NCBI GenBank assembly: GCA_003427395.1
Contig: BFEA01000009.1
Location: 2,741,792-2,804,500 of the forward strand
Direction of reading: 5' to 3'
Source of the DNA: Chara braunii
Taxonomy: Eukaryota; Plantae; Charophyceae
Length of the DNA stretch: 62,709 nt
Part shown: one piece after another, positions 22,181 through 62,709 of the stretch
How positions within the stretch are numbered: the first letter of the stretch is position 1
Layout of the letters: every line of letters starts with the position of its first letter
Position numbers and translations under genes: made by a program
The notes under the pieces: generated by a model
Databases searched by the model: none
Told to the model about the DNA's origin: nothing
What the model saw: only the letters and a program-made list of their open reading frames with translations

Positions 22181-22186
<6 letters not shown>

Positions 22187-22803: not shown

Positions 22804-22834
<31 letters not shown>

Positions 22835-22936: not shown

Positions 22937-23482
22937 TATATATATATATCGTCACAAAGTGATATATATATATATATATATAATATAATATTATATATAT
23001 ATATATATGTATACCTCGTCAAACGGAGCCGCTCTGCACTATGCTGCAGGGGGCGAATGGTGGTCCTTGGGCACACGTGGCATTTGTGTGGGGATCGAGG
23101 TTCCGAGGGATACGAGAGACATACCTGATGATGGAGGCGACCGGCCTTGGCCGAGAACCGCTCATACATCTGGGAGCTGTTGACGTCTTTTACGACATTA
23201 TAGATAGGCTAGATAGGATTAGTCATTCGTAGTTTGGGTGCTAAGCGCCAGATAGGATGTCGACATTGGTTTTTTTGTTGATGATGATGGGATCCTCAGA
23301 CATTGTTACTTACGAGTTTTTGCAGTGCTCTTATTTGATGAAACTCGTGTTGCAAATCTGCTTCTAATTCGAGGTCGCGACTTTCTGGTGTCATGTGCGA
23401 AATGTTGTTTGATTTCTAAAAATCGCTATGGCTCATTATTATTATCATTATTATTATTATTATTATTATTATTGATATTGTA

Positions 23483-23566
<84 letters not shown>

Positions 23567-25274: not shown

Positions 25275-25335
<61 letters not shown>

Positions 25336-32324: not shown

Positions 32325-35300
32325 CTTTGGATGAGCTGAACAGTTGAGAACTATGAGAAAGGTGGTATCAGCAATACAGTAGATGGTTCTCAATGTTCGT
32401 TAATAGATAGTATAGGGATTTTTGTTAAGCGAAGTCAAACTGTCATGTCTTGACGTAAGATGGGACGGTGGTCGTTTGTGTATTTCAAGAGATTCTACGG
32501 TCTAAATAAAAGAAGAAGAAGGAAAAATGAGTGATCTTGGTGACGACGATATCAATGGAGGAGGGTCACCACCTATAATTGCGGCCGAAATTGTCAAGCT
32601 ATTGGAAAGAAGGACGATCAAAAGGTCAAACCTGCCGAAAATAGATATCTTCCCTTTCAAAGGAAAAACAGTGTCTCACTGGTTGGAATTGCTAGAAGAA
32701 ATCTTCAACCAGTTGATTTCCGCTGAGAAATTTTCTCACCTGTACGAATATGTATGGTGGGAGTTTAAGCCGGATGTGGAAGAAGTCGCAAGGAAGGTCA
32801 ATGATAATTAGGCAGAATTTAAGAAGGGTATGCAGAGGAAGTTTAAATTAGGGGACGGTCTGCTCATTATTGAGCACTTGTACAATATGAACCGGGATGA
32901 TTTCACCACGATTGGGGCATTCGCCAATGCTTTTGAGAAGACGGCAGAAAGAGTCCCAAGGTTGTCTGAAGAAATGCAGTGCGTCATTTTTCTGTGAAAG
33001 TTTTCTGGGTATGAGGCCATGGAGTTGACTCGAGGAGTAGCCGCAGGCAGGAAAACAACTTGGGAAACTATTAAGAGAAACATCGCGGGCGGGGATCTGG
33101 ACCAGGTGCTTTACCACGAAGTTAAAGTGAAATGAAGGAAAAGAAAGGCAGTAGAAACAAATAAAGGGACCGACAATGCGTTAGAGGGAGTACTGAGTGA
33201 TATGGCAAATGAGATGAAGGAATTGAAGGAAAAGGTGTCGCCACGGAAGGTAATGACGGTTACGCAACCATCAGGGAAAAGGAAGAAAGAAGAAGAAGGG
33301 GAAGGCGAGGAAGAAGAAGAAGAGGATCATGAGGTAGCGGTCAAATTAACAAAGTGTCGAAGGAAGGCGAGATATTTAGCCATGGGGGGACCAGGTACGG
33401 TGAAAGGACATGTTTCTCAGCAGGCGATAATCCAGTATGGCCAAGAGTCGTCAACAAACACAGCTCAGTTCGGACAATGGCCAGTGGGGCCACTGATGAG
33501 TGCATGGCCCGGGTATTTCCTAATGGGACCATGGTCAATGCAAGGACCAGTAGGACCTTATCCAATGATGCCACAAATCAAGAATGTGGGAGGCGAGCAA
33601 GGAGTAGGACGTGATCAACAAAAGGGTAAACAACAACCAGGACCAAGTCACCAAGNNNNNNNNNNNNNNNNNNNNNNNNNNNNNNNNNNNNNNNNNNNNN
33701 NNNNNNNNNNNNNNNNNNNNNNNNNNNNNNNNNNNNNNNNNNNNNNNNNNNNNNNNNNNNNNNNNNNNNNNNNNNNNNNNNNNNNNNNNNNNNNNNNNNN
33801 NNNNNNNNNNNNNNNNNNNNNNNNNNNNNNNNNNNNNNNNNNNNNNNNNNNNNNNNNNNNNNNNNNNNNNNNNNNNNNNNNNNNNNNNNNNNNNNNNNNN
33901 NNNNNNNNNNNNNNNNNNNNNNNNNNNNNNNNNNNNNNNNCGGACAAGGATACGGAAGAGGATGGGTAAACTACAGTGAATGTACTTGTACTCACTGTGG
34001 GATCAAAGGGCATACGGTAAAGCGGTGTCACGTCAAGAAACTAGACGAATGCGATGAACGCATCACCTCGAATATAGATGGTGATGTGTTCAACAAAAGA
34101 GGTAATATGATCAGTCTGGACATTCTTGGTGGCACGAGGGAAGAAGCACTCCGAGTGGCTGGGCTTGGTCCCAGCACTCCGACAATGTTCTAAATTTGGC
34201 AAGAGAAGGAAGACCCTGTTGTGCATGTGGAAGATATAACGGAACTAGAAGAGAAAATGGGCAAGATGGAGGTTAGAGAAAACAAAGAGAACATTCCCCT
34301 CATTGAAGAAGAACCAGAGGGGGAGGATGTTAGCGTCAATGTCAAAGAAGCATTTGCTAGGATGGAGTACTTAATGGAAAAAATGCAAAGGTTACACCTA
34401 AGGCTTCGCGGAATATGTGAAGAAGTTGGAAGAGAAGGAATTAGATATCCGAAAGTATTTACCATGGGACTCGAACGACCGGGGGAGCGACCAAGTAAAC
34501 CTGACCCGAGAATGTTGAGAGCCAACATGGCTGCGAAAACTAGCATGGGCCAAAGGAACGTGAGGGGGTCCTTTCCATACGCTACGAGAAGGCAACATGG
34601 GAGCAATCCTCCGAAGGAACAAACACAGACTTCCTAGCCGGTTGAGGAAGAGTCACCAATCACGGTAGAAGAGGATGAGGACGGAGACGATAAAATGAGG
34701 GAAGTATGCTCACAAGTACGAATCGGCAGATAGGTTTAACTACTGGGACGAATTACGACAGATAGTAATCTTTCAAGCTTAATAATGAAACCCGATACTC
34801 CCAGCTTGAGAAACTTGGAAAGGAAATATGGTAGAATTAGAGGATAAAATAATGCGGAATTATGTCGGAAAAAAGTTAGATAATTGACAAAAGATAAAAG
34901 TTTTCCTTTTGTATGGTTGTGCAAACATGGTACGATATGGCTCCTGGAATATGGTTCGCAAGCCAATATTTTCTCATTAACCTGCCCTAGTAAAAAAACG
35001 GAGGAATTAAAATGACGTTACTTCGGCGAGGGGTGGAAAAAGGAGAAGAGATAGACACATGGTGTGGAATACCGATAGGGAAAGAGGCTTTCCTCTGGGT
35101 AGAAACTGGTTGGACCACCGAAAAAAGACACACGATAGTAAGGGTGACCCTGTACCTATCGACCCTCCTTTGGAAGGCGCATATGATTGAACTCGCGATA
35201 GGAGAGAGTCCTCCAATCTCCAAGTATGTTCTGACTGCATGGATGATTCTTGAAGCATTCTCTCAGGAGATGTACTTGGGAGAACAAGGGATGGTCATAC

Positions 35301-38145
35301 GGTCAATTGAGGCAAGATGAGCGACTGAGTTTGCCTATCCAACAATGAACGTTAAAGCTACTCTTCCTAAGTTTATAATTAACGAGGTTTTTTGGGGAAT
35401 AGAAAATGTGGAGCGAGCAGTACTTGCAGCGTAATCAGAGTCTGATATGGGTTTCGAGTTTGAAGCATCGGATGTTATTTATTGTTTGTACTTAGAAATG
35501 AGGCTGAAATTGGCAAAAGGGGACTTTTATAATATTATGTGTATCGTAAATGCGTATCTACGCACTTATCATCGGGAAGATCGTTTGACGTATTGGCGCA
35601 AGCTCTGTAAGGAAGTATGCATTGAGATCTTACTAGATGATATCCCATATTATTTGGTATGGTTAGAAGCTTTTGGCACAGGGATTGGGTAGCTTTGGAT
35701 GAGTTGAACAGTTGAAAACTATGAGAAAGGTGGTATCAGCAATACAGTAGATGGTTCTCAATGTTCGTTAATAGATAGTATAGGAATTTTTGTTAAGCGA
35801 AGTCAAACTGTCATGTCTTGACGTAAGATGAGACGGTGGTCGTTTGTTTGTCTCAAGAGATTCTACGGTCTAAATAAAAGAAGAAGAAGGAAAAATGAGT
35901 GATCTTGGTGATGACGATATCAATGGAGGAGGGTCACCACCTATAATTGCGGTCGAAATTGTCAAGCTATTGGAAAGGAGGACGATCAAAAGGTCAAACC
36001 TGTCGAAAATAGATAATCTCCCTTTCAAAGGAAAAAGAGTGTCTCACTGGTTGGAATTGCTAGAACAAATCTTCAACCAGTTAATTTCCGCTGAGAAATT
36101 TTCTCAGTTGTACGAATATGTATGGTGGGAGTTTAAGCCGGATGTGGAAGAAGTCGCAAGGAAGGCCAATGATAATTAGGCAGAATTTAAGAAGGGTATG
36201 CAGAGGAAGTTTAAATTAGGGGACGGTCTGCTCACTATTGAGCACTTGTACAATATGAACCGGGATGATTTCACCACGATTGGGGCATTCGCCAATGCTT
36301 TTGAGAAAACGGCAGAAAGAGTCTCAAGGTTGTCTGAAGAAATGCAGTGCGTCATTTTTCTGTGAAAGTTTTCTGGGTATGAGGCCATGGCGTTGACTCG
36401 AGGAGGAGCCTCAGGCAGGAAAACAACTTGGGAAACTATTAAGAGAAACATCACGGTCGGGGATCTGGACCAGGTGTTTTACCACGAAGTTGAAGTGAAA
36501 CGAAGGAAAAGAAAGGCAGTAGAAACAGATAAAGGGACTGACAATGCGTTGAAGGGAGTACTGAGTGACATGGCAAATGAGATGAAGGAATTGAAGGAAA
36601 AGGTGTCGCCAGGGAAGGTAATGACGGTTACACAACCATCAGGGAAAAGGAAGAAAGAAGAAGAAGGGGAATGCGAGGAAGAAGAAGAAGAGGATTATGA
36701 GGTAGCGGTAAGAAGGGGAATGCGAGGAAGAAGAAGAAGAGGATTATGAGGTAGCGGTCAAATTAACAAAGTGTCGAAGGAAGGCGAGATATTTAGCCAT
36801 AGGGGGACAACGTACGGCGAAAGGACATGTTTCTCCGCAAGCGATAATCCAATATGGCCAAGAGTCGTCAACAGGCACAGCTCAGTTCGGACAATGGCCA
36901 GTGGGGCCACTGATGAGGGGATGGCCCGGGTATTTCCTGATGGGACCATGGTCAATGCAAGGACCAGTAGGACCTTTTCCAATGATGCCACAAATCAAGA
37001 ATGTGGGAGGCGAGCAAGGAGTAGGACGTGATCAACAAAAGGGTAAACAACAACCAGGACCAAGTCACCAAGNNNNNNNNNNNNNNNNNNNNNNNNNNNN
37101 NNNNNNNNNNNNNNNNNNNNNNNNNNNNNNNNNNNNNNNNNNNNNNNNNNNNNNNNNNNNNNNNNNNNNNNNNNNNNNNNNNNNNNNNNNNNNNNNNNNN
37201 NNNNNNNNNNNNNNNNNNNNNNNNNNNNNNNNNNNNNNNNNNNNNNNNNNNNNNNNNNNNNNNNNNNNNNNNNNNNNNNNNNNNNNNNNNNNNNNNNNNN
37301 NNNNNNNNNNNNNNNNNNNNNNNNNNNNNNNNNNNNNNNNNNNNNNNNNNNNNNNNNNNNNNNNNNNNNNNNNNNNNNNNNNCGGACAAGGATACGGAAG
37401 AGGATGGGTAAACTACAGTGAATGTACTTGTACTCACTGTGGGATCAAAGGGCATACGGTAAAGCGGTGTCACGTCAGGAAACTAGACGAATGCGATGAA
37501 CGCATCACCTCGAATATAGATGGTGATGTGTTCAACAAAAGAGGTAATATGATCAGTCTGGACATTCCTGGCGGCACGAGGGAAGAAGCCTTCCGACTGG
37601 CTGGGCTTGGCCCCAGCGCTCCGACGATGTTCTAAATTTGGCAAGAGAAGGAAGGCCATGTTGTGCATGTGGAAGATATAACGGAACTAGAAGAGAAAAT
37701 GGGCAAGATAGAGGTTAGAGAAAGCAAGGAAAACGTTCCCCTCATTGAAGAAGAAGCAGAGGGGGAGGATGTTAGCGTCAATGTCAAAGAAACATTCGAT
37801 AGGATGGAGTACTTAGTGGAAAAAATGCAAAGGTTACACCTAAGGCTTCGCGGAATATGTGAAGAAGTTGGAAGAAAATGAATTAGATATCCGAAAGTAT
37901 TTACCACTGGACTCAAAGGACAAGGGGAGCGACCAAGTAAACCTGACCCGAGAATGTTGAGAGCCAACATGGCTGCGAAAACGAGCATGGGTCAAAGGAA
38001 CGTGAGGGGGTCCTTTCCATACGCTACGAGAAGGCAAGAGGGGAACAATCCTCCGAAGGAACAAACACAGACTTCCCAGCCGGTTGAGGAGGAGTCACCA
38101 ATCACGGTAGAAGAGGATGAGGACGAGGACGATAAAATCAGGGAA
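31336..38145 (+). repeat. Tandem duplication of ~3.37 kb (31336-34703 and 34704-38145) covering the ORF0 3' part and most of gag
   Basis: Junction ...gataaaatgagggaa|gtatgctcacaagtacgaa. Copies are colinear and highly similar but not identical. Confidence 0.95.
32527..34703 (+). pseudogene. gag: gag copy 1 (truncated by the duplication junction)
   Basis: MSDLGDDD...PKIDIFPFKGKTVSHWLELLE; zinc knuckle CTHCGIKGHTVKRC (C-x2-C-x4-H-x4-C) at ~33987-34028; in-frame stops. Confidence 0.85.
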
Positions 38146-42207: not shown

Positions 42208-42438
42208 CAAGATTAGAGAAGAGGTGAGCAGATGCTAATGACCGAACTTAAGTCAGCAAGTGTACACATACATTTATATATATATACATATATATATGAG
42301 TACATATATATATATATGGGTAAAGGATGTTTTCTAGAGCTTATGATGTGAAATGCTGCTTTGATGATGATGGTTGACCCTTGTACCTGTCACTGCTCCC
42401 TCTCTGTGTGTAGGCGTGACTCTTGAGAAGAGGTGGCC

Positions 42439-44633
42439 ATGGCCCAAAGAGGAAGAATGGCAGGGCCCTCTGGACCAACCTTGAGAAAGGGAAGGCAGAG
42501 GAGGGATCAGAAAGTCTCAAGGAGTCTGGAGGAGCTACCGATCTACGAGGCAGGGGATAACTGACGTGTATTCTTGAGAGATTTCGAGGAGTATGCCTTC
42601 AGGTGAGAATGGGATGACAGGATGAACCTCTGAAGGTGACTGGAATAGGAGGATATAAGAAAAAAATTGAAGGAGTGGCAGCAAGGTACTTGAGATGGAA
42701 GACTTATGTAGTCAAGTTGTGGCAGCTCATTGGAGAGTTTCCCAGAGATGAGATAGAGGATGACTTGGCATTTGATAGGATTAATTTGGATGATTTTGTT
42801 GAGAGCCTTCAACTATCTGCAGAGAAGGGAAAATGGAATGATGGGGATAAAAGAGAGAAATTGTTGGAAACAACAGAAAAAGTGAGCTTGAAGAAGTAAA
42901 AGAGATTGTGGATGGTGTTGACACTTGACAAGGCATAATGGTGAAGTTACAAATGACATACACTCAGCTGAGGCAGGACCAGACCAGAAAAGAGAGGCTG
43001 CAAGGGAAAAGATTGTGGATTGGAAGAGAGAAGGATAAGATGCAAGGGAGTGTCCAGGAAAAGGAAAAGGAAGAGGATGTGCTACTAAGGATCTTGAGGA
43101 ACAGACCTGGGACATGGGCCAAGGACAAGAGAGAAGGGGCAGAGCAGGTTCTGGAGAAAGGAGAAAAGGGGAAGGAGATGAGTGAAGCCTCAGGGGTTGG
43201 AAAAACTGAAGTGAGAAAGTCAGTTGAGGATGGCAGGAAAGGAGTTGAGATAACAGGAAGAAAGAGGAAAGGGGGATCAGAAAAGGATAAGGGAGTGGAA
43301 GAAGAGAAGTAAGGAGAGATAAGGGTGGAGTACGAAGGGTCATCCCAGAAGAAAGAGGAAGCAAAGTAAGTACAAATAAGCAAAGGGGAAAGAGCTCAGC
43401 AGGAGAAGTGGAAGAAAGAGTGGAGATGCTACAACACGATGATCTGTCTGCAAACTCTTCTTGGGATGTAAGGTTTGAGAGGATGTTGCTCTTTGAGCTG
43501 GTGGTAAGTTCAAAACATTCCACCAACATGCATGCGACTGCATGAGATGTAAAGTGCACCAGACATTTTAAAGAGTATGCAGAAGTTGCAAGGAAACTTT
43601 GTGAGATGGAGAGAGGAAAGGAAGAGAGGGAGATTGGCGATGATTTGAGTGCTTTGGGGAAGGGACTTCAATCAGAGCTCAGAGAAAGCACCGAGCTTTT
43701 CACCCAAGGATTCTTGGATTTTATCCTTGGGCTTCTGAGAGAGATAAGCAGGTTGAGGAAAAGGGAGGAGGAAAAAAATACCCAGGTAGCAAGTGTGATA
43801 GAGGGTTTGAAAGGGGTGACGAAGGAAGTGGAAGACTTAAAAAAGGCGAAGGAAGAATTGTTAAAACAGGTAAGTGCATTGGAGGTTTCCCGAGCCCAGA
43901 AGAGCAAGGAGTTGGAAGATGAAGCGGCAGAGAGGGAGAAGATAGAGAAGAAAGTTGAGGGTTTGTGCTCAGGAATCAGTGCGCAGGGGGAAAATTTAGA
44001 AGAAAAGATTACAGAAAGAGAAAAAATGAGTCAGATGTGGGAAAAAAGATGGGGTGAGATTCTGAAAGGGATGGAGGAGCTCAGACTAAGCCACCAAGAG
44101 AAGGACAAAGAGACAACAAAGATAGTAGAATGGAAGGGTGAAGAGGGGTTTGAGATTAAGATGACAAGAGGAGAAGGGGAGGATCCTCTGTCAAAAGAGA
44201 AAGAGGAAAAGAAAAATGAACAGACTGATGTTGGAGAGGTTGGGCCCTCCAGAAAGAGGACACGAGAAGGGTTAAGGATAGAGGAGCCTCCTGCCTCAGA
44301 GGAAGGAAATAGTGAATGTTTGACCCTGCTTCAGCAGGGAGGCGCTGAAAAAAGGAGGTTCCCTGGATTGGAGTCATCATAGGGAGCGGGGAGTCAGGCA
44401 CAAACTTCAACTAGACCTCACAAAAAGAAGGCTAAATACAACAAAGCCAGAATGGGTACTTCTTTTGCACAGAAGAATGACAGTTCAGGGATGACTGTGA
44501 GATATTAGCCAGGTACATTAAAGCAGGGATGACTAAGTTTGATGCACAAGGGAGGTTGGTTGCCAGCACAGGACAGACGATCCCAGGACGCCCAAGGGTG
44601 GCACAGTAGAGCTTCATCAGATACTGGGGTTGA
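42439..44633 (+). pseudogene. Second gag-like ORF downstream of integrase (capsid-like repeats, coiled coil, degenerate CCHC knuckle)
   Basis: gccATGg start after a pyrimidine-rich ...tgtgtAG. Peptides LPIYEAGDN*RVFLRDFEEYAFR*EWDD and AFDRINLDDFVESLQLSAEKGKWND; heptad-rich 43606-44382; YFFCTEE*QFRDDC near 44457. Confidence 0.65.
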
Positions 44634-46395: not shown

Positions 46396-47112
46396 CAGGG
46401 TTGTCGAGCTCCGGCCGGGGTCCGGGGGTCCGGGGCTGGGCACCCCCAACCCCGGCTCAGGAACCCCCCCCCCAAAATAAATAAATAAATAAATAAATAA
46501 AATAAAATAAAAAATAGTGTGGGGTGCGCAGCGAGAACGCGCACCACGTGAGCTAAACCACAAAAATGGGGTTTTTTGCCCCACCCCGGACCCCCCCCGG
46601 GGCCACACCCACCACTNNNNNNNNNNNNNNNNNNNNNNNNNNNNNNNNNNNNNNNNNNNNNNNNNNNNNNNNNNNNNNNNNNNNNNNNNNNNNNNNNNNN
46701 NNNNNNNNNNNNNNNNNNNNNNNNNNNNNNNNNNNNNNNNNNNNNNNNNNNNNNNNNNNNNNNNNNNNNNNNNNNNNNNNNNNNNNNNNNNNNNNNNNNN
46801 NNNNNNNNNNNNNNNNNNNNNNNNNNNNNNNNNNNNNNNNNNNNNNNNNNNNNNNNNNNNNNNNNNNNNNNNNNNNNNNNNNNNNNNNNNNNNNNNNNNN
46901 NNNNNNNNNNNNNNNNNNNNNNNNNNNNNNNNNNNNNNNNNNNNNNNNNNNNNNNNNNNNNNNNNNNNNNNNNNNNNNNNNNNNNNNNNNNNNNNNNNNN
47001 NNNNNNNNNNNNNNNNNNNNNNNNNNNNNNNNNNNNNNNNNNNNNNNNNNNNNNNNNNNNNNGAAACCCCTACCCCGGCTTGGGCCCCGGGGATCCCCGC
47101 TTGACAACCTTG
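46396..47112. mobile_element. hAT-like MITE with 8-bp TSD in the 3' LTR
   Basis: TSD gttatgag at 46388-46395 and 47113-47120. TIR cagggttgtcgagc / gcttgacaaccttg (12/14). Empty site at ~20150 in the 5' LTR. Confidence 0.9.
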
Positions 47113-48572
47113 GTTATGAGAGGCGCTGTGATAATTAGGCTCGGTAGTAATATTCGTAGACCGAAAAGGGTTGAGGTGTCGATTGGGTTAGTATTATATT
47201 GAGAAAACTTACGGCGCAGAGACTTTAGATAAGCTAAACTAGAATACACCCCGACCATATAGTCGGAGCAATAAAAGGAAGTAATTGTCGAATTTTGCAG
47301 TATCACCCTGAAAATGTTTGTGGCATGTCATGTGAACTTGTATTCCGCAAACAGAGGATGAGGCTCCCGCTCGGCCTCCTGTAAGTAGAGAGGGAATTGC
47401 CCCTTGGATGGTGACTTCCTGACCACGTGGCCACCTGAGCGACCGGTGTCTTCGTACCTTTACAGAGGGAGACACCGTTGCAAGCTTTGATATTATCCGC
47501 ACAGGGCCTAGACTCATACTACTTGAGCTGGTGCCCGCCTACCGAACGATACTGGGCCTCTGAAAATGCCTGCCTTTATATTCTTCTGCTCGGCCTCAAA
47601 TTCCCGACGCGTCTCCTTGATGTGGTATCGGCCTACCCGCTGCTTAAGTGTTTTCAACAACCCTTATGTGTCACGGGCCTCTTTCCCCGCCTCTTGAGTA
47701 TTTTCCCCACCGCGATACTCAATGTCTCGGCCACCAGTAAGTACCGACCCTTCTGGCCCTACGATGAGTCAAGTACTTTTGCGGGTCACACACGTGCTCA
47801 AGCCAACAAACATACTCGCACACGGACTCAGAAAACGGGCTCAACTGAGCCCCAATACACTATTTGTATCTGAACTGTTCCACTTCTACTCGAAGTAGGA
47901 GCTAGCTCAGTAGGTTTGGGTGCAAATTATTGAATGACAGACGCAGGGATCGAATTTGCCCGACCCTTGAGCTAGCTTCTTTTTGACAAGGAGCTCAAGA
48001 GTATTTTTCCCTGACCTTGGGTGGCAAGGACTTGAACCCGCAACCTGAGCATTAGGATTAGTTATAGTTAGCTGGTTAATTGAGATTTGGGCGCCCGCAT
48101 AACGGGGACCTGACACTTGGCCGATATAGGTAGTTTGTTGGATTTTTATTATTTTATTTTATTTTGTTCTTTTATGTTAACCGTAGTTTCACAAGATTCA
48201 CGTTCATGAATCTGCCTCCGAACTCCGAGCAGATTCAGACTAGTAAAGTAGCAACGAACTGATTGCTTGGGAGTACGACGCGACATCGCAAAGGCTGAGG
48301 AGTACGGCGAGGCATCGTGAAGAGTTAGAAGCAGGGCACGGCATCGCAAAGGCTGAGGAGTATGACGCGGCATCGTGAAGAATCAGGAGCAGGGTGCGAC
48401 ATCACAAAGGCTGAGGAGTATGGCGTGGCATCGCGAGGACTTGGGAAGCACGACACAGGGAAAAGAGAGGGCAGTGTGGAGAAAAAGAGGAAAAGCTAGA
48501 GGGAGCAAAAAGGGATATCGCAAGCAATTTAGAACGCAGGTGGTCGCACGAGAGGTAGGAGGCACGTGGGGA

Positions 48573-48603
<31 letters not shown>

Positions 48604-49085
48604 GAGGAGAAGAAGAGGAAGAAGAAGAAGGAAAAGAAGAAGGCAGAGAAAGAACGGGAAAGGTGGAGACAACTTATCTATTGCCCACCCTCTGATTCAA
48701 CACTCTCATCCTATAGAGGATAGATGCGGGTGTGTTGAAGTGCTGTCTTCGTATCCGCACTCACAAAAGGGGTCTTTCTATCAGTATCGGGAGGTGTCGA
48801 GACTCGTAAGAATATGCTGTGCTCGTTTTTCGATCGAGTAGCATCGTGGAGCAACTCACCGGCCAACAAGTAAGTCTCCGATCTGCAAATGAACTCTAGC
48901 TACTTGCGTTGGTAGAATGCACAGTAAACGAATGAATATATGACTAGAATATGAAAAAGGTACATTGCTATACTCTTGGGATTGAACAAAATCGAATGAA
49001 TCTAACGTTAGGATGAGGAAGTATAAATAACTATGCAAGCGTGCGGATATTTGTGGGTAAGTGGAACGTACCATGTATGTTAGGA

Positions 49086-49117
<32 letters not shown>

Positions 49118-50292
49118 GTTGTCAAATGTATATCCATATGCATATATATATATATATGTATACCTCGTTAAAATGAGCCGCTATGCACTATGCTGCAGGG
49201 GGCGAATGGTGGTCCTTGGGCACACGTGGCATTTGTGTGGGGATCGAGGTTGCGAGGGATACGAGAGACATACCTTATGATGGAGGTGATCAGCTTTAGC
49301 CCCGATCATACATCTGGGAGTTGTTGACGTCACTTACGACATTATAGATATGCTAGATAGGATTAGTCATTCGTAGTCTGGGCGCTAAGCGTCAGATAGG
49401 ATGTCGACATTGGTTCTTTGTTGATGATGATGAAACTCCTCAGACATTGTCACTTACGAGTTTTTGTTGTGCTCTTATTTGATGAAACTCATGTTGCAAA
49501 TCTGCTTCTAGTTTGAGGTTGCGACTATCTGCTGTCATGTGCGAAATGCTGTTTGATTTTTATAAATCGTTGTTGCTCATTATTATTGTCATGATTATTA
49601 TTATTATTATTATTATTATTATAATAATAATAATAATTATTATTATTATTATTATTGATATTGTAGCTATTATTATTATTATTTTTATTGTTGTTGTTTG
49701 TTGCCCTTATCTAAATGAGGTCGCAACAGAATGAAGTCAACTGAGGAAAAACATAGAGAGGAGAGAGAGAAAATGGCGGGATTGGAGGCAGAGACTACCT
49801 GGTACGGAGAGAGAGAGAGAAAGAAAAAGAAGAGGGGGGGGCGCATGATGATCGTAGAAGGCACGTAACGTCTGTGAATAAGGGACTGAGGTTGAGAATG
49901 ATACGAGAGACTTATTTGGTGCTTGAGGCGAGCAATGTTGGTCGATATCTGCTCGGACTTCGGGACACTGTTGACGTCACCGGCAACATTGTAGATAGGT
50001 AGGGTCCGCCATTAGTGGTTCAGGCGCTGAGCGCCAGATAGGAGCTCAACATAAGCGCATTGTTGATGATGATGAGATTCGTTCAGTGCTGTCACTGTGA
50101 CCTTTTGTTGTGCTACTATTTGGTAGAACTGGTGTTGCTATTCTGCTTCTGGTCACGACTATCTGGTCTCATGTGTATGATGCTGTTTTCTGAAGCTCGC
50201 CATCGCTCACTTTCCTTGCATTTTATTTGCTTTGATTTATTCTTTTATTAGTTGACTGATATTATTATTATTATTTATTATTACTGTTGTTG

Positions 50293-50353
<61 letters not shown>

Positions 50354-50878
50354 TGTATTCGCAATAGGACTCACTTCTTTCTTACTTCACATGCATGGTA
50401 CACCACACTGGCGACAACCGCCCAACTCAAAACTAAGAGAAGTGGAACCAAAAACGATGTTCGATTACAAACTCGCTGCAGATAGAGTATGGCGCTATAG
50501 CACCCAACAAGTCGTTGCTCATAGCTATGACCAACTCCACTGCTCATACCCTCAACTCTGGATCTTCCTGGATATCCCACACATGACACACTGTACAACC
50601 GACACATATGAATACGCACAAATAAAACAAACAGAAACAGACGAACCAGATTGACATACAGGAAGAAGACGGTCAGATAAACAGATCAACGCTGTGTTGG
50701 TGTGACCTGATGGCTTGAACGTTGGCTCATGACTTCATCGTATTACTCTTATTTGGATAGGATCTCGGTGCATTTGTGCTTTCTACTTGTACACGACTAC
50801 TTGGACATCTATGTGATTTCGCATTTGGTTTTCTGTATAACGTTCACACTCATATTCTCTGCGCTCGCGAGAAGGGAA

Positions 50879-50947
<69 letters not shown>

Positions 50948-53248
50948 AATGAATTTGATCTTACCTTCATCTGCCGCTCACCATGCGCGAAAGGTAGAGG
51001 ACGAGTTGAGCTGCATCCGGGGAGGACATGCTATTAGAGAGATGAAGAGACAGAGATTGGACTAGCTCCACAAAGTCTGTCAGGTGTTTTCATGCCGGTA
51101 ATGGATGTTCCAGTAAATTAAATGTATCCCATTCCCAGCGTCGGATACATTTGAAATATCGTGAAGTGGAGCAAGGCCTGTATGTGTGTGCGTGTGTGTG
51201 TGTGTTCGTTAAAGAGGGGAGAAAGGGACATACAAACAGGTAGATCGTAACAAACAGATAAAGACACAGATTCAGAAACACACGGTCACAGTGACACAGA
51301 TACTGTGACATACATACACAAGTGAAACAGTGAAATACACACATATATAACAAAATACACTCATACACAGCGACAAACACGGACACTGTGACACTCGCAC
51401 AAGCACAGTGAAAACAGAGAAACACGCATAGTCCAAAAAAAAAAAAAAAAAAAAAAAGAGTGCACAATGACACACAGTGCACAAGAGTACACAAACAATG
51501 ATGCGCACAAGTAACACACACTAACAAGGAAAGTCACACATATGCACTATGTCACAAACACAAACACAGTCAGTCACACATTCAATCAGACACACAACTG
51601 GATACTCAAGCAAAACGGACGGACAAGCATGAGGATGTAAGGGTACGTACCTGGTATTAGCAGAGACAAACATAGGTCGACACCTTTATATACTTGAGGC
51701 GGTTGTCGACACCAACAAAGGCTCCGTCACTTCATAGGATAGTAATAGTTGCATAGATTATGGTACCCTACACATACAGCGTGAGGCTGGCATAGTAAGA
51801 ATGGGCCAAGAACACTATGAGCGCAGTATTGACGCCAGGTCCGCACGCAGGCACGGGCTGGCGTGAGCCGCCACGGGATAGCGGGGCACTAGCGGGCGTG
51901 GTCAGCGAGCCGCCAGTGGTTGTGGTGAGGCATGCAGAACAGCGAGCGTGCATGCTAGGATAGGTGTGTACATGCGTATATGGGACATCCAGGGTGGATC
52001 CTAGTTGGAAAAAAAAGTATTGAGTACTGGTGCAATTAAGTTGCTGGTGACACGGTGATCGAGGGGGAAGAGAGAGATCCTATTGAGTAATGTGGGCCCG
52101 AACCATGTTCAGAGAGAGGCTAAATCAGACTGTGTTGCTGATCAGATCCATGAGCCCCGAGTGGTATGCATATTTTTTGCCCAAATTAAATGTCATTATT
52201 CTATCATTTTCCATTACTAAATAGTGTTATTATTGCTGCTATTATTATTATCATTAATACGCTATTTTATGATTTTATTTATGACATTATTACTACTACT
52301 ATTACTATTATTCCTGACAGCTATATGGAAAGGTCATAAATGTAAAGGGGTACAGGGTATTGGAAAAGGAGAGAGTCACTGTAATCAGCGATAGGATCTA
52401 CCTCCTCAGTCCTTCTCTCTTCACCCCGCAACAAAACCTCTCACACACCAAATACTTCTATACAAAATGGTTAAAAAAATGTTAGTACAAAGTGGCTCTG
52501 AAGGAAAGGTCTTAATTTGAGGGACTTAAGATCCTCTTTCATCCAGCTTAGATATATCCAAAAGACAAGGCGATTGCAGGAGCTCTGCTGGAGTTCAGGC
52601 GGAACTCTGGAGGCAGGGAACAACGAGGTACACTCACTTCTCGGCCTAAACCATAAACCTTTAATCTATAACCTCCGGGTAATGGTCTTTGCATGTAATA
52701 ATAGAGAGAGCGTTTTGAGTCAGCAATTCTTCAGAACTGAACTCAAGACAAGGAAAAGAAAGAAATGCCTGTATAAAGAAAGAAGAACCATGGAGAGACT
52801 GTTTGTATGGAAGAGATTTTATTAGAGTCTGACCGACTGTCGCTGGAAGACATAAGGAGAACGAGAAGTTCTGAGTATTTGTCTTGCTATGTGAATGTTT
52901 CTTTAGGGATGTGGCCACAAGGGAATCCACTTCGTGGAGTCTTCCCTTACTTAATAGACCACCTGGCAAATAATAAAAGGGGTTCACAGTTGACTGAAGA
53001 TTGTGTATGATGTGTTCGGATATTGTGATGATGAATTGCATCAACTTATTCTTGTTCCACAATGACTTAACCCTACATTCTCTCAAAAATATAAAACTAA
53101 CACAATCTGAGGATCAGGCCGAAGGTCTTTAAGCCATGAGGTACAAGTCCCGTATGGACTACCCGCATAATCTTAAAGTCTTCCGAATGACCCAAGGCTA
53201 AAAAAGCGTCAAAAGAGACGACCAATGTCGTCAGAAAACTTGTATAAA

Positions 53249-53782
53249 CGATAGGAGGAGCGAGACTCCGAGAAGCCTGCCCTATCGCAATAATGGCACG
53301 GAGGGTGATAAGAGAAGCGAGGCTCCGAGAAACCTGCCTTACCACCAACCAGCCGTGCGTTAGTACGAGTAAGCGATAGGAGGAGCGAGACTCCGAGAAA
53401 CCTGCCGTATCGCAAGGATAGCATGGGGGTGATAAGAGAAGCGAGACTCCGAGAAGTCTGCCTTAACACCAACGAGCCATGCATTCAAACAAGTGATAGG
53501 AGCAAGGCCTCTTAAGGCATGCCCCATCGCTTGTGTAGCACGGGTAAGGGAAGTGGTGATAAGAGAAAGGAAGGCTCCGAGAAGCATGCCTTATTACCTG
53601 CCAACCGGGCTTCGATATCTAACGACGATAGGAGGAGCGAGGCCGCAAGGTCTTCCCTATCGCAATCACTAGCACAAGTAAGGGAAGTGGTGATATGAGA
53701 AGCCTGCCTTATTGCCCGCCAGCTGTGCTTCAATATCAAGTAGTGATAGGAGAAGCAAGGCCCACGAGGTCTACCCTATCAC
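53249..53782 (+). repeat. Stem-loop array (9 units) in the 3' LTR
   Basis: Uninterrupted counterpart of 27127-28248. Confidence 0.85.
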
Positions 53783-54758
53783 AAACAGACACCCATTAAA
53801 GGATGGGTAGATCTCGAGCAGTCTACCATACCATTATTAACCTCCTCAATAAAACTGGATCAATCAGATTACTGACCGATAACTTCAGATTCTATTGAGG
53901 TGAGGATAGTGAGTTCTTGACCTAATAGACTCAACCCTTCATCTCGGAACTCTGATTCGATTTCTATCATATGACTCCTTTTAAAGATGGTTTGACGATG
54001 TTGCTTGTGCTTGCCAAATAAGAAATCAAGAAGGAAACTTTGGTAAGCAGTCATGAAAAGAAACTTATGTAGGATCATTGAGTCGGATAAACTGGGAATG
54101 AATTATTGTTCATCGTCTGAACTGCAAGGCAACAGCCTGACAATTAGATAAGGATGAAAGTTAGACAGTGGGTCACCGATAAGCGTTGATCTCTAGGTCA
54201 CAAATCGAGAAGGAGTGTTCTTAATCCTAGTATAGGAAAAGGGGATGTTAAGTTTTTTTTTACTGTGTTGTGCCTACAGGTTTCCATCACTCTTGGGGAA
54301 ACTACGGAAGAACCCGTAAGGGACTACAATTCTGTCATCGTAGGATAACAGGTCGGTAGGATTCCGACTCAACTTCCATATGGCTTGATACCCACATCTA
54401 AGACAAAACCGGAAAAGGGACGGACAAATCTTCCCCTGTATCTAAGCCTAAATTGTCCTAGTCACTCTCGAAGGTCTTTCAAAATGTGAAGGGTTGGGTA
54501 AGAGAGTCAAAAGTAGGAAGGAGTGTTGTTCCAATGTTTTGGGGAGTGAGGGACTTGTTATGAATGGGTTAAAGGTTGACGCTAGTAGTTCGTTCCCTGT
54601 CTGTATTTGTACGCGTGTATGTGACTTCTTTGCTTTTGCACAGGTTTTGGGTCGTGATTGTCTCCTGAACTTGAGTGGTGATCTGAGACATTTGGACAGG
54701 GTGCACCGCAATTGTAAGAGTGAGGTCTACCACTCATTCGCTCTAAGATACATATATA

Positions 54759-54808
<50 letters not shown>

Positions 54809-55381
54809 CAAGACTATATTTTGGGCCAAGCTTATGCAGGTTATTATCTAGGATTCTGTTGAGATTTTTGGGAAATGGTAAAATTACAGAAGCAGCTAGA
54901 CATTGACATTGCTTATATAGTCAACAAGGAACGTAGACTCGTTGTCATAAGTAGCTAAGCGTGGAGGACTGTCCGAAAAGGGTTGACCTGATTAGGTAGT
55001 CGGTCCGAGGAAGTTAGCTCCTCGGTACACAAATACGGGTTAGTCTTAAGGCATTCTACCGCACGTATGCCTATGCTACTGCGATCGGAAAAACGCCCTC
55101 GGCTGACCTACCTCTACAATTGCATGTAAAAGCCTTCGCACGTGGGTCAGTAGCTCAGCAGGGATACGCCCATCTAAAGGATGGTGACAGCTCCCACAGG
55201 TGGAGGTAAGTTGTACCTCGAGGGATCTCTGACGTGTCGTAGGGATCCACGAGAGGTATAGCACGCACGCACGGTCGGAGTGGTGTTTAGCTAAGGTGAC
55301 TTAAGACTCCTGCGTGATACGACCGTGAGGCCCGACACAAGAATTGCTTTACGTCTGGGTGTGGGACCGCCACGCGCGACA

Positions 55382-55787
55382 ACGAGATCGACGTCGGGAT
55401 CGGTCTTGGGATCGGCGTCCGTATCGGGGTCAAGAGAGAGGGAATCAGGATCAGAAATCGAGGTCAGGAGTGAGGGGATCGGGATCGGGAGATAAGGGGA
55501 TCGCAATCGGGGTCGGGAGAGGGGGGGGATCGGGATTGGCGGTTTTCATTGATTTATTGACTGATTCACTGGTTGATTGATTAATTGATTGATTGATTGG
55601 TTGATTAATCGATTGATTAATCGATTGATTCCGGATCAGCGCACACCTGGTTCCGAGTCCGCGGAAGACAAGTTCCGGATCGGCAGAAGGTAGGTTTGTG
55701 ACCGGCGGAGGGTAGGTCCGGGGTATCAATCACCCACTCACTCACTCAATCAATCAATCAATCAATCAATTAATCAATCAATCAATT

Positions 55788-55848
<61 letters not shown>

Positions 55849-55886
55849 GTCAACCAATCAATCAATTGATTTATTGATTGATTGAT

Positions 55887-55919
<33 letters not shown>

Positions 55920-55945: not shown

Positions 55946-56164
55946 TATACAACCGCGTGACATAGTACAGGTGGCATTGAAGTCACCTGCACTGCCTGTC
56001 TGTGCTTGCTAGCGTGAGTCTTGTTTTGTGTCCGTCGCTGTGCTGCCTCGTCCTTCGGTCGATTCTATTGTGCACACCCGCTCTCGCGTTTGGAGTTGTG
56101 TCGCCCGTTTGTATTCCTCCACGTGGCCGCAGGTTTGTGTAAGTGAGAGTGTGGTCGTGTGCGT

Positions 56165-58480
56165 TGTCGGCGCGAATACCCTTACAAGGGTATCCGCCCT
56201 GGTTTTTGCAAGTGGCAAAAAATAATTTTGGTTTAAAAATTAAATATACCACGTGAGTCGCGACAGGGTTCGTTGTCTATGCGGCTGATGGTTGACTAGA
56301 ATAAAGAGTGTATGGGCGCGCGGATTTGAGGCGCGAGTGATCCATTTAACTATTGATGATTGAAGAGTCGGCGTGATCGCCGGCCAAAAATTTTCTTCTG
56401 ATTAAACAGGGATTAAAAAGATTACGTTTCGTTGATTAATGTGTTTACCTATGACTTGTGCGTGCGTGCGGAGGACGGCATCAACAACAAAGTGACTTTT
56501 GAGGCGCCTCCGGTAGGCCCGTGCGTCGCGCGGTGTCCGTTTATTTAGCCTTCCGTAAGAGCTAGACCCAGCCTTGGGCCTAGCGCTATTGGTTACAGTA
56601 TCGGACTTCCATCAAGGAGATTCAGGGATTGAGGTCGAGCGACGACGATGTGGGAATATCAGAGCAGCGCGAAGGGACCAAAGGGTTGAGGTCCCGACGG
56701 GGCTATCCCCTTTGGTTTTGCCGTCGGTGGCGTTGGAACGGGGCTAGTGGGTTGTTTTTTTTCCTCGATCCGTCATATTCTGACGATTTAAAATATTGTA
56801 AATGTTTTATTTTTTTATTATCATATTATTTTATATTCCGGCGTCCCTTTGACTTGGGCGCGATGACGGATTTAGTGGTCGTCACGACAATTGAGGATCT
56901 TGAGTACGCGCCTCTTTTGGCGGGTCCGATCAGATTCTGCGTGACCGGGATGTTGGCAAAATTGTCGTTTCTCTTTCTATTTCGACTGCGTTGAAACGCG
57001 GACTGAGGAGTTCAACATGTATGCAAAGCCGGTGGGCGATAAGCCCACGTAGCGGGTGAAATGTGAGCCGCGGGGATAGCCGCAAGAGCGTTGTCCGCCA
57101 ACCATGGTCTTTCGTGAGAAGTTTGGGTGTGAGTGTGTGCGCCAGGGCCTACAAGGCGCCGAATTATGCCTGGGGGCAACGAGAGGGGAACCTGGGTGGG
57201 GGCCGCAGTGTGGCCTACTTACATGGGACCCTCCTTTGCGGTGGTCTTCGAGATTCCCATATGAACGTCTGCTATTATCACTGAGACCTGCATCGGGCCA
57301 GGGCCACTTAGGCCTCGCCTCGGCCCCATAGCAAGCCGTGCCCTCAGCTGCGTGTCAAGGATGTCCCCTCGGGTGGACGCAGTCGAGCCGGAATTAGTAA
57401 GAGGTTGTGGCAGGGTCGACAGTAGTATATGCTGGACACACAGGCAACCGACCAGGGCATAGGGGCGGAAGACTAACCGGGCCGTCGGGGAGTCGACCGC
57501 TTATTGAAGTATCGTCCGTGACGACCTTACCAGACTGCGTTGAGCACTGGGGGACTATTGCGGGCGGAGAGCTGCGTTAGTCGCTGAGGCAGAGTAGGGC
57601 GGACTGAGGGCAGGACGACGAGCGCTAGCACAGTGGGGTGACGAATACAGTGACGAACACAAGCAGTGGTGGAGGGTGAAGGCAGCAGGTCAGTGAGAAT
57701 AGGACGAACCTGACCCGGAATCGCGCCGGGTGCAGTGGAAGAAAACAGTGAGGAAGGGACGGGCGGCAGGCCGGTGAGGCGCAAACGGGGACGAAGGAGA
57801 AGGCAGTAGGGGGTGAGGATTTTAGAATGAGAGGGGGAAGGCGAAACAGCGCAGCTACGGGCGCTAAAGGCAGGAATGAGGGGCAGCGGGGGAACAGGTA
57901 AACAAGGAGAATGAATCTGGACGCAAAGTCACGCCGGATGCATGCGGGATACGAGGAGTGGCTATGGCGGAGAGAGGGAAGCATAACTCGCTTGTTCCTT
58001 AGTGGAATCAGGCCAGGTAAAGGCCGATTTTGGGGTTACGATGTCACACGAATCGCATAGGAGAGTCAGTTTAGCCATTAGATTAGTAGGAAGGGAGCTA
58101 GAGAGAAAGGAGGTGAGCTGAGAAGTCGAAGGAGGTGTAGGCAGGGTGAAGGAGGCGTAGCTCGCTCGTTTCTCGACAAAAACGAGCGAGGAAAGTTGTG
58201 AAGTAAAGGTTTTATGGCCGGGTGAATCAGATGGCAGTGTTAGTTTGAACAGAAAGTTAGTAGGTTAGGAGGTTAGTAGAAAAAGAGCCGCGCAGGAGTG
58301 TCAGGGAGATGAGCTATGGCAGGTATGGCAGAAAGGAAACGCTATCTCCTCCGTCCCTCCACGGAATGGGGCGAGGGAGGATGCTAGACTGACGTTTCTA
58401 ATGGTTAGGAGTTGATTTATGAGGTTAGTTTAGCTATAGGATTAGTAGATAAGGGGTCAGTAGGGAATTGAGCTGCACGT
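56165..58480 (+). mobile_element. Partial LTR-like sequence of a related family
   Basis: Starts TGTCGGCGCGAATACCCTTACAA. The first ~700 bp are a diverged direct repeat of 58481-59230 (shared cttgggcctagc, ggttgagg.cccgacggggctatccc). Confidence 0.55.
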
Positions 58481-60894
58481 TGTCGGCGCGAATACCCTTA
58501 CAAAGGTATTCGCCTTGTTTTTTGCAAGTGACCGGGAGGCTTGGTTAACTTGGAATTTTGAGTGCCCGCGCGGAAAAAATGGGGATCGTCCGCACGCAGG
58601 CTAAGGATTGCCTGAGTAGGAAGGGTGAGTGGGCGTACAGTTTTAAGGCGCACATGTGATTTCTTGTTTAAAATGAATTGTGAAGCCGGTATAACTATCT
58701 GGCTTGATTTTTGTTTACCACGTTTCGGTTGGCGGAAGGCTCGACATGTGGAAAGGTGTGAACGGTGGCCGCGACGCGACATGTACAAAATGGTGTGGGT
58801 ACTCGGCGGCCGCGCGCACGGTTGAAAAGGAGGGAGAGGCTTGGGTTGTTCTTCCCAGGCCTGGGCGATGCGCGGTACCACGTCATATTGAAACCTGTGC
58901 TCGACTGTCTCTGGCTTGGGCCTAGCCCTACAGGTTACAACATTGGACTATTACCATCGAGGTATGGGGGTCGAGGCCAGCGGACGACATCATGGGAGCA
59001 ATGGAGCGGCGTGGAGGAAACCGAGAGGTTGAGGGCCCGACGGGGCTATCCCTCTTCTGGTCTTATTGGCGGGCGAGGTGATGTCCGACCTGCAGGGCTG
59101 GCGAGGTGCCGGCAACTCCCTCTTTCCCCCGCTAATGTTTGTGTATTTTTCTTGATATATCTTTTTTTTTTTTTTTTTTTTTTACGTCCCTTTTTTCCTT
59201 TCCGCGTCCCGTGCTGGGGCGCGATACGTGGTTGTAGCCAGGACCCATAGGCGTAGCGTAGTTGGTACACCCATGAACTGTCGGAATACAGATCGCGCTC
59301 GATGCCGGATGGGTGGGACCCGGTACTCTGAGTTGCCTGGTCCTGCTCAGGCTTCGGTCAGGCAGAGGGTGCCACCTCGAGGCAGTTGCGAGGCCGGTCC
59401 TTCGGTAAATTTGTTAGGGGTTGGGGCGGCGCGGAGGAGACCCGCCTGGCCACTGTGCGGGATGACATGAGAAGGTCCGGAGATGAACCCGGACAACGAC
59501 GGGGCCAGGTGCTTGCGGAGGGAAAGACGAGAGACAGTAGGAGCTGCGCTCTTACTACGAGGGAGCCAAAGAACTTGTATTTAGACGTGCTCTGGCAAGA
59601 GATTCGTCCCGGGCATAGACAAAGAGCCACTATCAGCGTGTCGAAGAAATCAGCCCTTTCTTGCTCCGCTGTGCTGATGGCGGCGAGCGACAACAGGTCT
59701 CTTCGTACCGCAGCAGAAGACTTAGTCTGAGTTTGCCCCTTCTGGTGGTCGGCTGGAACAGCGAAGGGGTTGGAAACAAGCTACGGGGACTGAAGACCTG
59801 CCTGTTTGGTCGAGGCTGGCTGCGGTGCACAGTTGCTGCTGATTCTGTCGACCCAGGGCAAACTGCTGCTGCTGCTGCAGACTGGGCGTGGGCTGCTGCA
59901 GTTGCTAATGGCCGACTCTGTATGATGCCGCTAGTGCCTGTTGTTGATTACTGCATGCTGCGGCGCGCAGCCGCGAGCTGCTGGCCGCCGCTGTGAGTTG
60001 TGGCTATGTTCGGAAGCTGGGCAGGAAACGGTCGTCGTTGTGTTTGACTGAGCACAATCGTTGCTGCTGCTGACAGGGCACAGTTTACAACTATCTGCTG
60101 CGAGAAGACTGCGGCTGCTGATTGATAGTGTGTGAACTACGTTTGCGTGCGGACTGCTATTGTACGCTACTGCGTATTAATGCTTGTCGGTGTCGACTGT
60201 TACGGGTTGCTATGTAACCGCGATTGGGCTAAGGAGGGGTGTTGAGACTCGTGGAGGAGATCAGGCAGGATAAGTAGGGGGTTAGTGCTGCGATTTGTGA
60301 GGTTCGCGAAGGGTGGACCTGGACAGTTGACGTCAGAAGTTGACAAGGCTGCGGTGTTGTTTGGCCATCATTGTGGGGCCCTCAGGCGTTGAAGGTGCCA
60401 AGGCCCTCTCATGCGAGTCTGAGCGCACCATTCTTTGATCTGAGAGTCTCAAACTTTCTCTTTCTGTCCTTCTTCCTCTAAGTCTGCTCCTTTGGTTCTG
60501 AGAGGAAGGTGGCAGACGGGGCTGCGACCCGTAGTCCGTGCCAAGGCCTCTGTGGGAGGTTCGCCCCACCGATTGCGGGAGCTCTGCCGGGATTCGGGCG
60601 GAGTCCTGGAGGTAGGGAACTGAGTGGTAATTCCCAGACTCCTTCTATAACCCCAGTTATAACCCCTATCTGTATACCCCTCTACGGGTTGGCTGAGTGT
60701 GTTGTGTGAATCCTGTATCTGATTTTGGTTTGGCCTTCAGGACATAAATCAGAGTAAAGTAAAGGAACGTGTGTGCAACCTTAGTTTCAGCCTTACTGAT
60801 TGCCTGAAAGAAGATTGTGGACAAAAAGGGGTTGCATTTAGGGGGAAGGTTGGGAGGAAGGCAGTATTGCGTGCAGTTTTGATTGGGTCGTTAA

Positions 60895-61830
60895 GGCTGG
60901 GAGGTCCCCATAAGTTTCGGGAAGCCCAACGCTTTGTTTATTTTCGTTTTGCGTGGAGCAATTAGGCCGCTCTATAAGTTTAGGTAGCTTGAGTGCTCTT
61001 GAGGCTAGGGAGTCCCCATAAGTTTGGGAAGACCCGGTGCTGTGAATTGCGTGGAGGGTCAGGACGCTTTATAAGTTTAGGTGACCTAACTGCTCTGACT
61101 TGTGAGGGTTTGATTGTGGATGATTTTCAGGGACCCAGGGCGCTTTATAAGTTTAGGTACCTTGGGTTGCCTTGTTTTACTTGGAGGTTCTTTCAGTTTC
61201 TTTGATTCTGAACGAGAAGGTCTGAACCGCTCTATAAGTTTAGGTGGTTCAACTCTTCTCCTGTTTGTTCTGAGGGGGTAATTTTGTCAGGGGGCAGGCC
61301 ACTCTATAAATTTAGGTGCCCTGGCCTACTACCTCACACAGACTGGATCTGAGAGGAACGAACCTGGCAGAGGATCAGACCGCTCTATAAGTTTAGGTAG
61401 TGTGACCCAACGCCTCGCACATGATTGAACCCAATGGTTATGATTTGGTTATATTGTATTATTATATTATTAAGAATAGGCTAGTCAGACCGCTCTATAA
61501 GATTAGGTAGTCTGAGTATAACTTATCACAATTGAAGAGAGTATAATTAAGAGATATAACTGAAGGTAAACTTGGGCAGGCTGAGCAGTGTTCTAAGTTG
61601 AGCGGCTCAGCCCTATGTCTACTTTAAAGGTTAAGTTCAGAGAGATATATACAATTTGGCTATTTAAACAGTTCAGGGCGACTAGAGTGGTCTAGTCATA
61701 TGCCCAAAGAAGAGAGAAGTAGTTGTGTCCTGTGTTTTATATGTATTTGGCTAAGTCAGATGCGCTCTATAAGTTTAGGTGATCTGACTTTAGGCCTGGC
61801 TAAGTTGGGCGCTCTGTAAGTTCAGGTGGC
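60895..61830 (+). repeat. Array of 12 stem-loops with a TAAGTT apical loop and unique spacers
   Basis: Core cgctctataagtttaggt or compensatory variants. Loops at 60911, 60975, 61019, 61072, 61148, 61235, 61307, 61388, 61498, 61594, 61770, 61817. Confidence 0.9.
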
Positions 61831-62094
61831 CTGACCTATGCCTTCTGTAAGTTGGGTATAAAGGGGGTAACTCACAGAGAGAGCATGAACTATTGTTTGC
61901 TAAAGACTTGGGGGTTGGTGAGAGTACTTACCTTTGTGGTTTGGCCTGCCTGTGGCTGAGTGAGGCTACTACTTGGGCTGGGTTTCAGGTTGATAGGTAG
62001 TTGCTTTAGAGGTTCGCCACGTGCTAGAGCGACAGGAGTTAGTTCAATTCTTGCATTTTCTGAGCTGACTTTATTTTACTTAGATTGATTCCTG

Positions 62095-62510
62095 CATTTT
62101 CTGGGATCCTTTGTTATACTTGGCTTGTATAAATTTTGGTAAGCTACTTTCTCTACGGGAAGCGCTGCCAAAATTTCTGCAGATCCAGGGAGTTAGCCAA
62201 ATTTTGACTTTTCCAAGTCCAACGTGTCTAAAGTTCATATATGGCTTAGTAAAAATCTGGAAAGTCTCATTTTCTAAAGGGAGTGCTGTCCAAATTTTTG
62301 CTAATTCAGGGAGTTAAACAAAATTTGGACTTTGAAAAGTTAAAGGTTACTTCTGTTTTGTTATTTAGGTTGATATAAATTATGGAAAGACATTTTTCCT
62401 ACGGGAAGCGCTGCCGAAATTTTCTCAATTTAGAGGAGATAGATTATATTTTGACAGGTGATGATTTTGACAATCCAATCTGTATAGGGGAGACTCTGCC
62501 AAGATTTACC
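62095..62510 (+). repeat. Degenerate ~122-bp tandem repeat (3-4 units) with internal hairpins
   Basis: ctacgggaagcgctgccaaaattt variants at ~62153, ~62274, ~62399 and partially ~62487. Confidence 0.75.
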
Positions 62511-62709
62511 TTTGCTTTGGGCACTGTGTAAGGGTAGACTTAGGCTTAGTTAGTTCGGAAGGGTTTTGGAGTAAGGTTGTGATTATCCTCTAAGGATTTA
62601 TATGTTTAGCTTGGGGTTTCGCCTGTCATGTGTTATAGACCCTCTTGATCGGTTGATTCAGGATCTGGATTAGACTGAGTTCGATCCTACGAGGATCACC
62701 TTCTGTTAT

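Follow-up and report, generated by a model that had tools for sequence, protein, structure and literature searches.

It is poorly defined how plant-lineage LTR retrotransposons select their own RNA among co-expressed families. In MS2, the TR stem-loop and its look-alikes act as multiple packaging signals, which share a loop and a bulge and have variable stems (PMC6281560). In RSV the packaging signal is placed before the splice donor, so a retroviral packaging signal need not follow a donor (PMC5035971).

We analyzed a 62,709-nucleotide stretch of the Chara braunii genome (contig BFEA01000009.1, positions 2,741,792 to 2,804,500 of the forward strand), here called the window, which contains an array of twelve hairpins with a near-invariant loop. 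In our preferred reading, to which we give a probability of roughly 0.45, the array is a multivalent, family-specific docking platform on the sense RNA of a retrotransposon, likely for the element's own Gag in genomic RNA packaging. The initial annotation of this sequence did not place the array in any described family, and this stands. An Rfam 15 search of 60330–62709 returned no match at E up to 1, and the same search of a second copy found in metagenome contigs, L001, returned only three weak matches (E 4.7–7.3). Listings and abstracts, mostly of open papers, on UAAGUU loop hairpins, gypsy tandem stem-loops and Chara braunii retrotransposon hairpins held no description of it.

A hairpin array with a near-invariant loop

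The array occupies 60893–61840 on the + strand and comprises twelve units with the loop UAA(G/A)(U/A)U, as identified by a covariance model, pairing tests and orthologous covariation. The loops start at 60911, 60975, 61019, 61072, 61148 and 61235 in units 1–6 and at 61307, 61388, 61498, 61594, 61770 and 61817 in units 7–12. As first annotated, ten of the twelve loops are exactly TAAGTT, the other two being TAAATT (61307) and TAAGAT (61498), and the units are irregularly spaced at 44–176 bp. The spacers had been called non-repetitive, which is mostly true, but 60891–60999 and 60999–61096 are 70% identical, a 108-bp internal duplication that accounts for the first two pairs of units.

A typical unit has a lower stem of free sequence, mostly a G-U and then a C-G step, a bulged U on the 5′ side, a 3-bp upper stem and the hexaloop. 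Across 22 units from the window and L001, the upper stems are CUA/UAG, CUG/CAG, CAA/UUG and CCA/UGG, the loop positions U, A, A and last U are invariant (22/22), and the bulged base is U in 17. Units 1 and 3 are of a different type, which has CCCCA/UGGG(G) and lacks the U bulge. Eight of the twelve window units differ by at most two letters from one 17-nt core, and AG|GT is present in the 3′ arm of eight of the twelve. Also within the array, at 61680–61697, is a perfect 7-bp hairpin, GACTAGA-GTGG-TCTAGTC, which has the same letters in L001 and lies at a peak of DNA depth; it is a possible dimerisation element.

The annotated stem-loops proved real: there are twelve hairpins, their pairing exceeds that of shuffled sequences, and the covariance model finds all twelve (E ≤ 8e-4), by construction, having been built from the window and L001 units. 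Over the whole window, the model found nothing outside these units below E = 1. On each strand, the fold of the 971-nt array region is more stable than that of all 20 shuffles (z −3.45 for + and −3.13 for −); in a 120-nt sliding scan, most windows did not surpass shuffles. When a fixed structure was imposed on a gapless alignment of the 22 units (264 cells), 79.5% of the cells were paired, compared with 65.2% in shuffles; none of 500 shuffles reached 79.5%, a count that is not a probability, as the aligned units are mutually related. Slid registers of this alignment were only 23–50% paired, and two-sided changes were seen at all 12 pairs of the structure.

Arms of the twelve window units pair more stably with their own partners (−16.5 kcal/mol) than with swapped ones (−11.3 kcal/mol), and none of 100,000 permutations was as good; the own arm was the best partner in only two of the twelve. 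Taken singly, six of 12 units in the window and eight of 10 in L001 beat flank shuffles at 2/100 or better. The window copy looks decayed because fewer of its units beat these shuffles than in L001, and because four stem positions (61007, 61029, 61069 and 61402) lack a Watson-Crick partner here and have one in 93–99% of genomic contig depth, as taken from the best 40 of 1,539 and the best 40 of 504 read-table rows.

Metagenome contigs scanned for an exact 17-mer match yielded 45 loci, among which L001 is the sole homologue, 76% identical over 60326–61720; the other 44 were rejected as unrelated single matches without an array. The covariance model showed no array at the loci from scans of viral contigs (1 and 0 loci) or of prokaryote genomes (nine loci). 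The covariation comparison is between two full copies, the window and L001, with four gap-placed pairs excluded in each direction. L001 spans ten of the twelve units and keeps all ten hairpins in the same order. When the window structure is placed on L001, 93 of its 143 pairs are unchanged, 24 are kept by one change, 14 are compensatory two-change pairs (null 5.0, P = 0.0002) and 12 are broken (null 31.9). Reciprocally, the L001 structure on the window has 94 of 154 pairs unchanged, 20 kept by one change, 15 compensatory (null 5.4) and 25 broken (null 43.7). Loop letters changed at two of 60 positions between the copies and flank letters at 27.8% (p = 9e-7), and core letters vary far more in L001 than among the window units with the pairs always kept. 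The array is, on this sequence evidence, under selection for structure, and covariation between orthologous hairpins supports the annotated proposal that selection acts on a single-stranded form. The free exchange of stem letters with retention of pairing speaks against a dsDNA landing pad.

The array-bearing repeat and a related element

The repeat that holds the array spans at least 60330–62480. Summed contig depth in run X1, which is not copy number, is 5,900–46,700 over the array and 12–61 at 59360–60031; exceeding 59360–60031 in depth by a factor of hundreds to thousands, this is an interspersed high-copy repeat. A conserved upstream block (60330–60700, + strand), recognized by sequence comparison, has the highest RNA depth of the window in two stranded runs and folds no better than shuffles (z −0.8 and −0.4). 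Downstream of the array are two further hairpin-like units, the first strong and the second weak, that share the 14-nt loop ATTCYTGCATTTTC (62033–62105, + strand). These are followed by degenerate repeats of ~120 bp (62110–62480, + strand) that form weak hairpins whose loops contain AAATT; the repeats have the highest DNA depth of the repeat and vary in unit number among copies, with joints going back 50–201 nt.

A neighboring element occupies 20150–55381 on the + strand, bounded by direct repeats at 20150–29756 and 47113–55381 that are 86–92% identical. Its PBS, TGGCGCCGTTGCC, is of tRNA-Asp/Asn type and lies at 29759, right after the 5′ LTR. Between the LTRs are RNase H and then integrase matches, both on the + strand and in the same orientation as the block, and we assign the element to Ty3/gypsy because RNase H precedes integrase, the Ty3/gypsy order. 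All nine protein matches to the RNase H region are named Chara braunii (40–65% identical). The LTRs are ~9 kb, and nested insertions are seen at about 22180–22960, 27380–27937 and 46399–47107. A gag-like region is duplicated (31336–33655 and 34704–37072, adjoining assembly gaps), and a degenerate extra ORF follows integrase at about 42400–44400.

The segment 60570–60700 of the conserved block has a homologous counterpart within each of this neighbor's two LTRs (26467 and 52571; nhmmer E 1e-8 and 1e-7), in the same orientation, which supports the retrotransposon setting guessed in the annotation. Only this segment matches, and the homology ends short of the array, which begins ~200 bp behind the LTR-homologous block. 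The putative array-bearing LTR probably has its 5′ end at 58481–59240 (+ strand), a segment that starts with TGTCGG and is homologous to 56165–56867; 58481 shares a start hairpin with 46201, and contigs break off just before 56162–56165 into mixed flanks. The 130-bp homology and the inferred LTR start lead us to place the array provisionally in a multi-kilobase LTR, which would belong to a related family, start at 58481 and continue through 59240–60330; the focal PBS, gag and pol lie outside the window. The neighbor's LTR ends 2.8 kb after the block, and the equivalent end of the focal LTR would pass the end of the window at 62709. The hairpin AATACC-CTTACAA(A/G)-GGTAT occurs at 46211, 56175 and 58491, ~10 nt inside three LTR starts, and its outer stem changes between families.

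Analogous arrays lie on the + strand in both LTRs of the neighbor, with nine units at 27123–28251 in the 5′ LTR, interrupted by the insertion at ~27380–27937, and eight units of bulged hairpins (seven of them aligned) at 53244–53790 in the 3′ LTR. They follow the shared block by ~0.55 kb, and the loops of these bulged hairpins are mostly C(C/U)GAGA. An alignment of 16 of the 17 units (234 cells) is 90.6% paired, with slid registers at 35–47%. Two-sided changes occur in 14 cells, a number that 2 of 500 shuffles reach; one other count is reached by 5 of 500, and two more, at 134/500 and 500/500, are not above shuffles. There is no G-T excess in the neighbor's array (10 vs 11). The layout of a block followed by a same-loop array appears to be common to both families, with a family-specific loop, the support being weaker than for the focal array.

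Several other assignments for the array region were considered. A coding explanation was rejected: no long ORF runs over the array, a protein-level comparison of the window with L001 to the left of the block showed similarity only at the shared block edge, and two reading frames over the block had no protein match, which is weak evidence from short queries. A PBS at about 60360–60400 was dropped since the homologous block lies inside an LTR. Nothing was found in favor of a Penelope-like origin, and the available part of an account of Penelope-like elements does not mention a hairpin array (PMC8557442).

Elsewhere in the window, no tRNA genes were found. At 59250–59292, many RNA reads map on both strands and loose ends resemble tRNA A and B boxes, so far as sequence can tell probably a tRNA-derived SINE remnant. 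A solo or 3′ LTR (TGTTACA...TGTAACA) at 3585–4968 follows a purine tract and contains 47-bp and 36-bp tandem arrays; the sequence before it reads by eye like what we take to be a degenerate chromodomain. An ORF at 12520–13704 (− strand) has a BTB_2 domain match (E 1e-5) and a weak Auxin_inducible match, and contains a microsatellite and an adapter-like stretch. Within this region, at 13690–13726, two 15-letter motifs stand back to back, which we take to be the Nextera mate-pair junction adapter and likely an assembly artefact. Inverted (ATTG)n/(AATC)n arrays at 17867–18384 and 55548–55919 form long fold-backs, the source of spurious miRNA matches in the Rfam search.

Strand, transcripts and the donor-like site

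Counted on the − strand, Watson-Crick covariation reaches the same significance (12 and 13 compensatory pairs vs 5). L001 has 25 G-T and 4 A-C oppositions (p = 0.01 against base composition), and the window has 20 and 10, respectively (p = 0.51), so the annotated preponderance of G-T among non-canonical pairs on the + strand holds in L001 and stays at composition level in the window. In the poly(A) libraries X6 and X8, summed first-mate depth over 12 array bins is 17.1 on the − strand vs 0.6 on the + strand and 37.7 vs 0, respectively; library X7, from the same study, has no strand bias over the array. In most stranded libraries a first mate on the − strand represents + strand RNA, and we assume that rule here. 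Reads at least 95% like the window copy number 16 of 158 in X6 and 14 of 272 in X8, and because most are below 95%, the reads come from relatives of this copy. With these caveats, transcripts of the family in X6 and X8 lie on the + strand and come from copies other than the window's. The + strand reading of the annotation is supported by two of the three RNA libraries and by the G-T excess in L001.

At the end of the conserved block, at 60615–60632 (+ strand), is a donor-like site consisting of GGGAAC, six letters ending in G, and then GT, with the cut after 60626. It occurs in the same register in the window, L001 and both LTRs of the neighbor, and the array starts ~270 nt downstream. RNA loose ends fall at 60621–60623. 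In the larger groups, of 14 and 30 reads, GT follows in the same register, while eight reads from X8 (agreement 0.58) and one contig from X9 continue after AG without GT, as if spliced. No spliced joint from the donor-like site is present among the joints listed. A 1,763-nt contig from X9, a run guessed to be RNA, has joints linking the block and the array, a contig not being proof of one transcript. The RNA-to-DNA depth ratio drops about sixfold from block to array, which could instead reflect a block shared by more families. As a hint only, these observations suggest that unspliced RNA may be the sole transcript form to include either array, each of which lies downstream of a conserved donor-like G|GT.

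Candidate roles and known systems

In the reading we prefer, the twelve hairpins would form on the element's sense RNA and a protein would read the UAAGUU loop and bulged U, leaving the helix sequence free, with a dozen sites supplying avidity. The donor-like site ~270 nt upstream would leave the array in unspliced RNA only, and the different loop of the neighboring family would let each family's protein choose its own RNA. We favor the element's own Gag over one host factor because two related families have different loops. A broader proposal, possible but doubtful, is that charophyte giant-LTR Ty3/gypsy families carry an RNA barcode, made of a shared donor block and a family-specific same-loop array in unspliced RNA and read by their own Gag. 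If true, such a barcode would amount to a loop-protein specificity code, programmable and so far undescribed, that distinguishes an element's own genome from co-expressed relatives. The presence of two adjacent related families with the same layout and different loops makes a direct specificity swap test with short synthetic RNAs possible.

The structural and strand evidence that points to Gag docking would equally fit a host nuclear export or localisation factor that reads the sense-RNA hairpins and licenses unspliced RNA, as Tap does with the MPMV CTE. The position after a donor-like site suits an element needed by intron-retaining RNA, and the MPMV CTE and RSV direct repeats act in this way (PMC5035971). 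However, UAAGUU in one family and mostly CYGAGA in a related one better suit co-evolving element proteins, and the array has no Rfam match; on balance we think a host factor of this kind rather unlikely. The start of the array ~270 nt after the conserved donor-like site, and the AG|GT in eight of the twelve window units, could also indicate that the array tunes RNA processing, damping the upstream donor or acting in 3′-end formation in the 5′ LTR, via a host RNA-binding protein or structure alone. Yet AG|GT is missing in units 1, 3 and 10 and in most L001 units with pairing kept, no joints ending at AG|GT occur among the best-supported raw RNA rows, and structure alone would not fix the loop letters, which makes a processing role improbable in our judgment. 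Recursive splice sites in the 3′ arms were rejected, as only some of the units have AG|GT.

The selected form might instead be DNA, as cDNA hairpins in reverse transcription, as cruciforms, or as dsDNA sites for a transcription or anti-silencing factor. In favor is the probable location of the array in an LTR; LTRs often contain regulatory repeats, such as the Sirevirus palindromes (PMC4728375). Watson-Crick covariation is strand-neutral, and eight of the twelve window units are within two letters of one 17-nt core. This core is far more variable in L001, with the pairs always kept, and the one-strand G-T excess in L001 (p = 0.01) argues against cruciforms and dsDNA sites, leaving ssDNA of that strand unaffected; we give a DNA-level role little credence. 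It seems to us very improbable that the array is a neutral product, made by duplication of units and template-switch correction of near-palindromic sequence and owing nothing to selection for a bound partner. Template-switch correction can produce paired changes. Also in line with a neutral origin are the one 108-bp internal duplication seen, the decay of the window copy, and the fact that most windows of the 120-nt sliding scan are no more stable than shuffles. Such correction would, however, erase bulges and G-T pairs and would not hold loops at 2/60 changes while flanks diverge 28%, and all ten comparable hairpins are kept in order in L001.

Among described retrotransposons, the neighbor resembles ATHILA-like Ty3/gypsy elements (10.64898/2026.03.20.713144 and PMC2844528) in having a tRNA-Asp/Asn PBS and RNase H before integrase; the word 'hairpin' is absent from the main texts of both. 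ATHILA LTRs are given there as 1–2 kb by default, whereas those of the neighbor are ~9 kb with insertions. Like the palindromes of maize Sirevirus LTRs (PMC4728375), the array consists of repeated hairpin-forming motifs, in what is probably a plant-lineage LTR, that differ among families. In the Sirevirus palindromes the arms are conserved and the center is variable, whereas the array has a constant loop on arms that vary by compensatory changes. Sireviruses are also Ty1/copia elements, whereas the related LTR flanks RNase H and then integrase, the Ty3/gypsy order.

Retroviral psi, the MPMV CTE and the RSV direct repeats (PMC5035971) share with the array a structured RNA in a non-coding region of a retroelement, possibly in unspliced RNA only. 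Those are one or few distinct structures, whereas the array is a dozen same-loop units, apparently within a multi-kilobase LTR. In position the array is like psi or CTE elements and in design like multiple packaging signals, and it is a candidate for either class. It resembles MS2-type packaging signals (PMC6281560) in its many stem-loops, shared loop motif, 5′ bulged base and variable stems. It differs in being clustered in 0.95 kb of non-coding retrotransposon sequence and in combining a hexaloop with a bulged U as a putative protein site. MS2-type signals are dispersed along the genomic RNA; the array units lie within 0.95 kb of a window that lacks the focal internal region. If the partner is found, the array, as a naturally occurring set of 12 hairpin sites whose stems are free to vary, would offer a ready RNA-tagging design like MS2 arrays.
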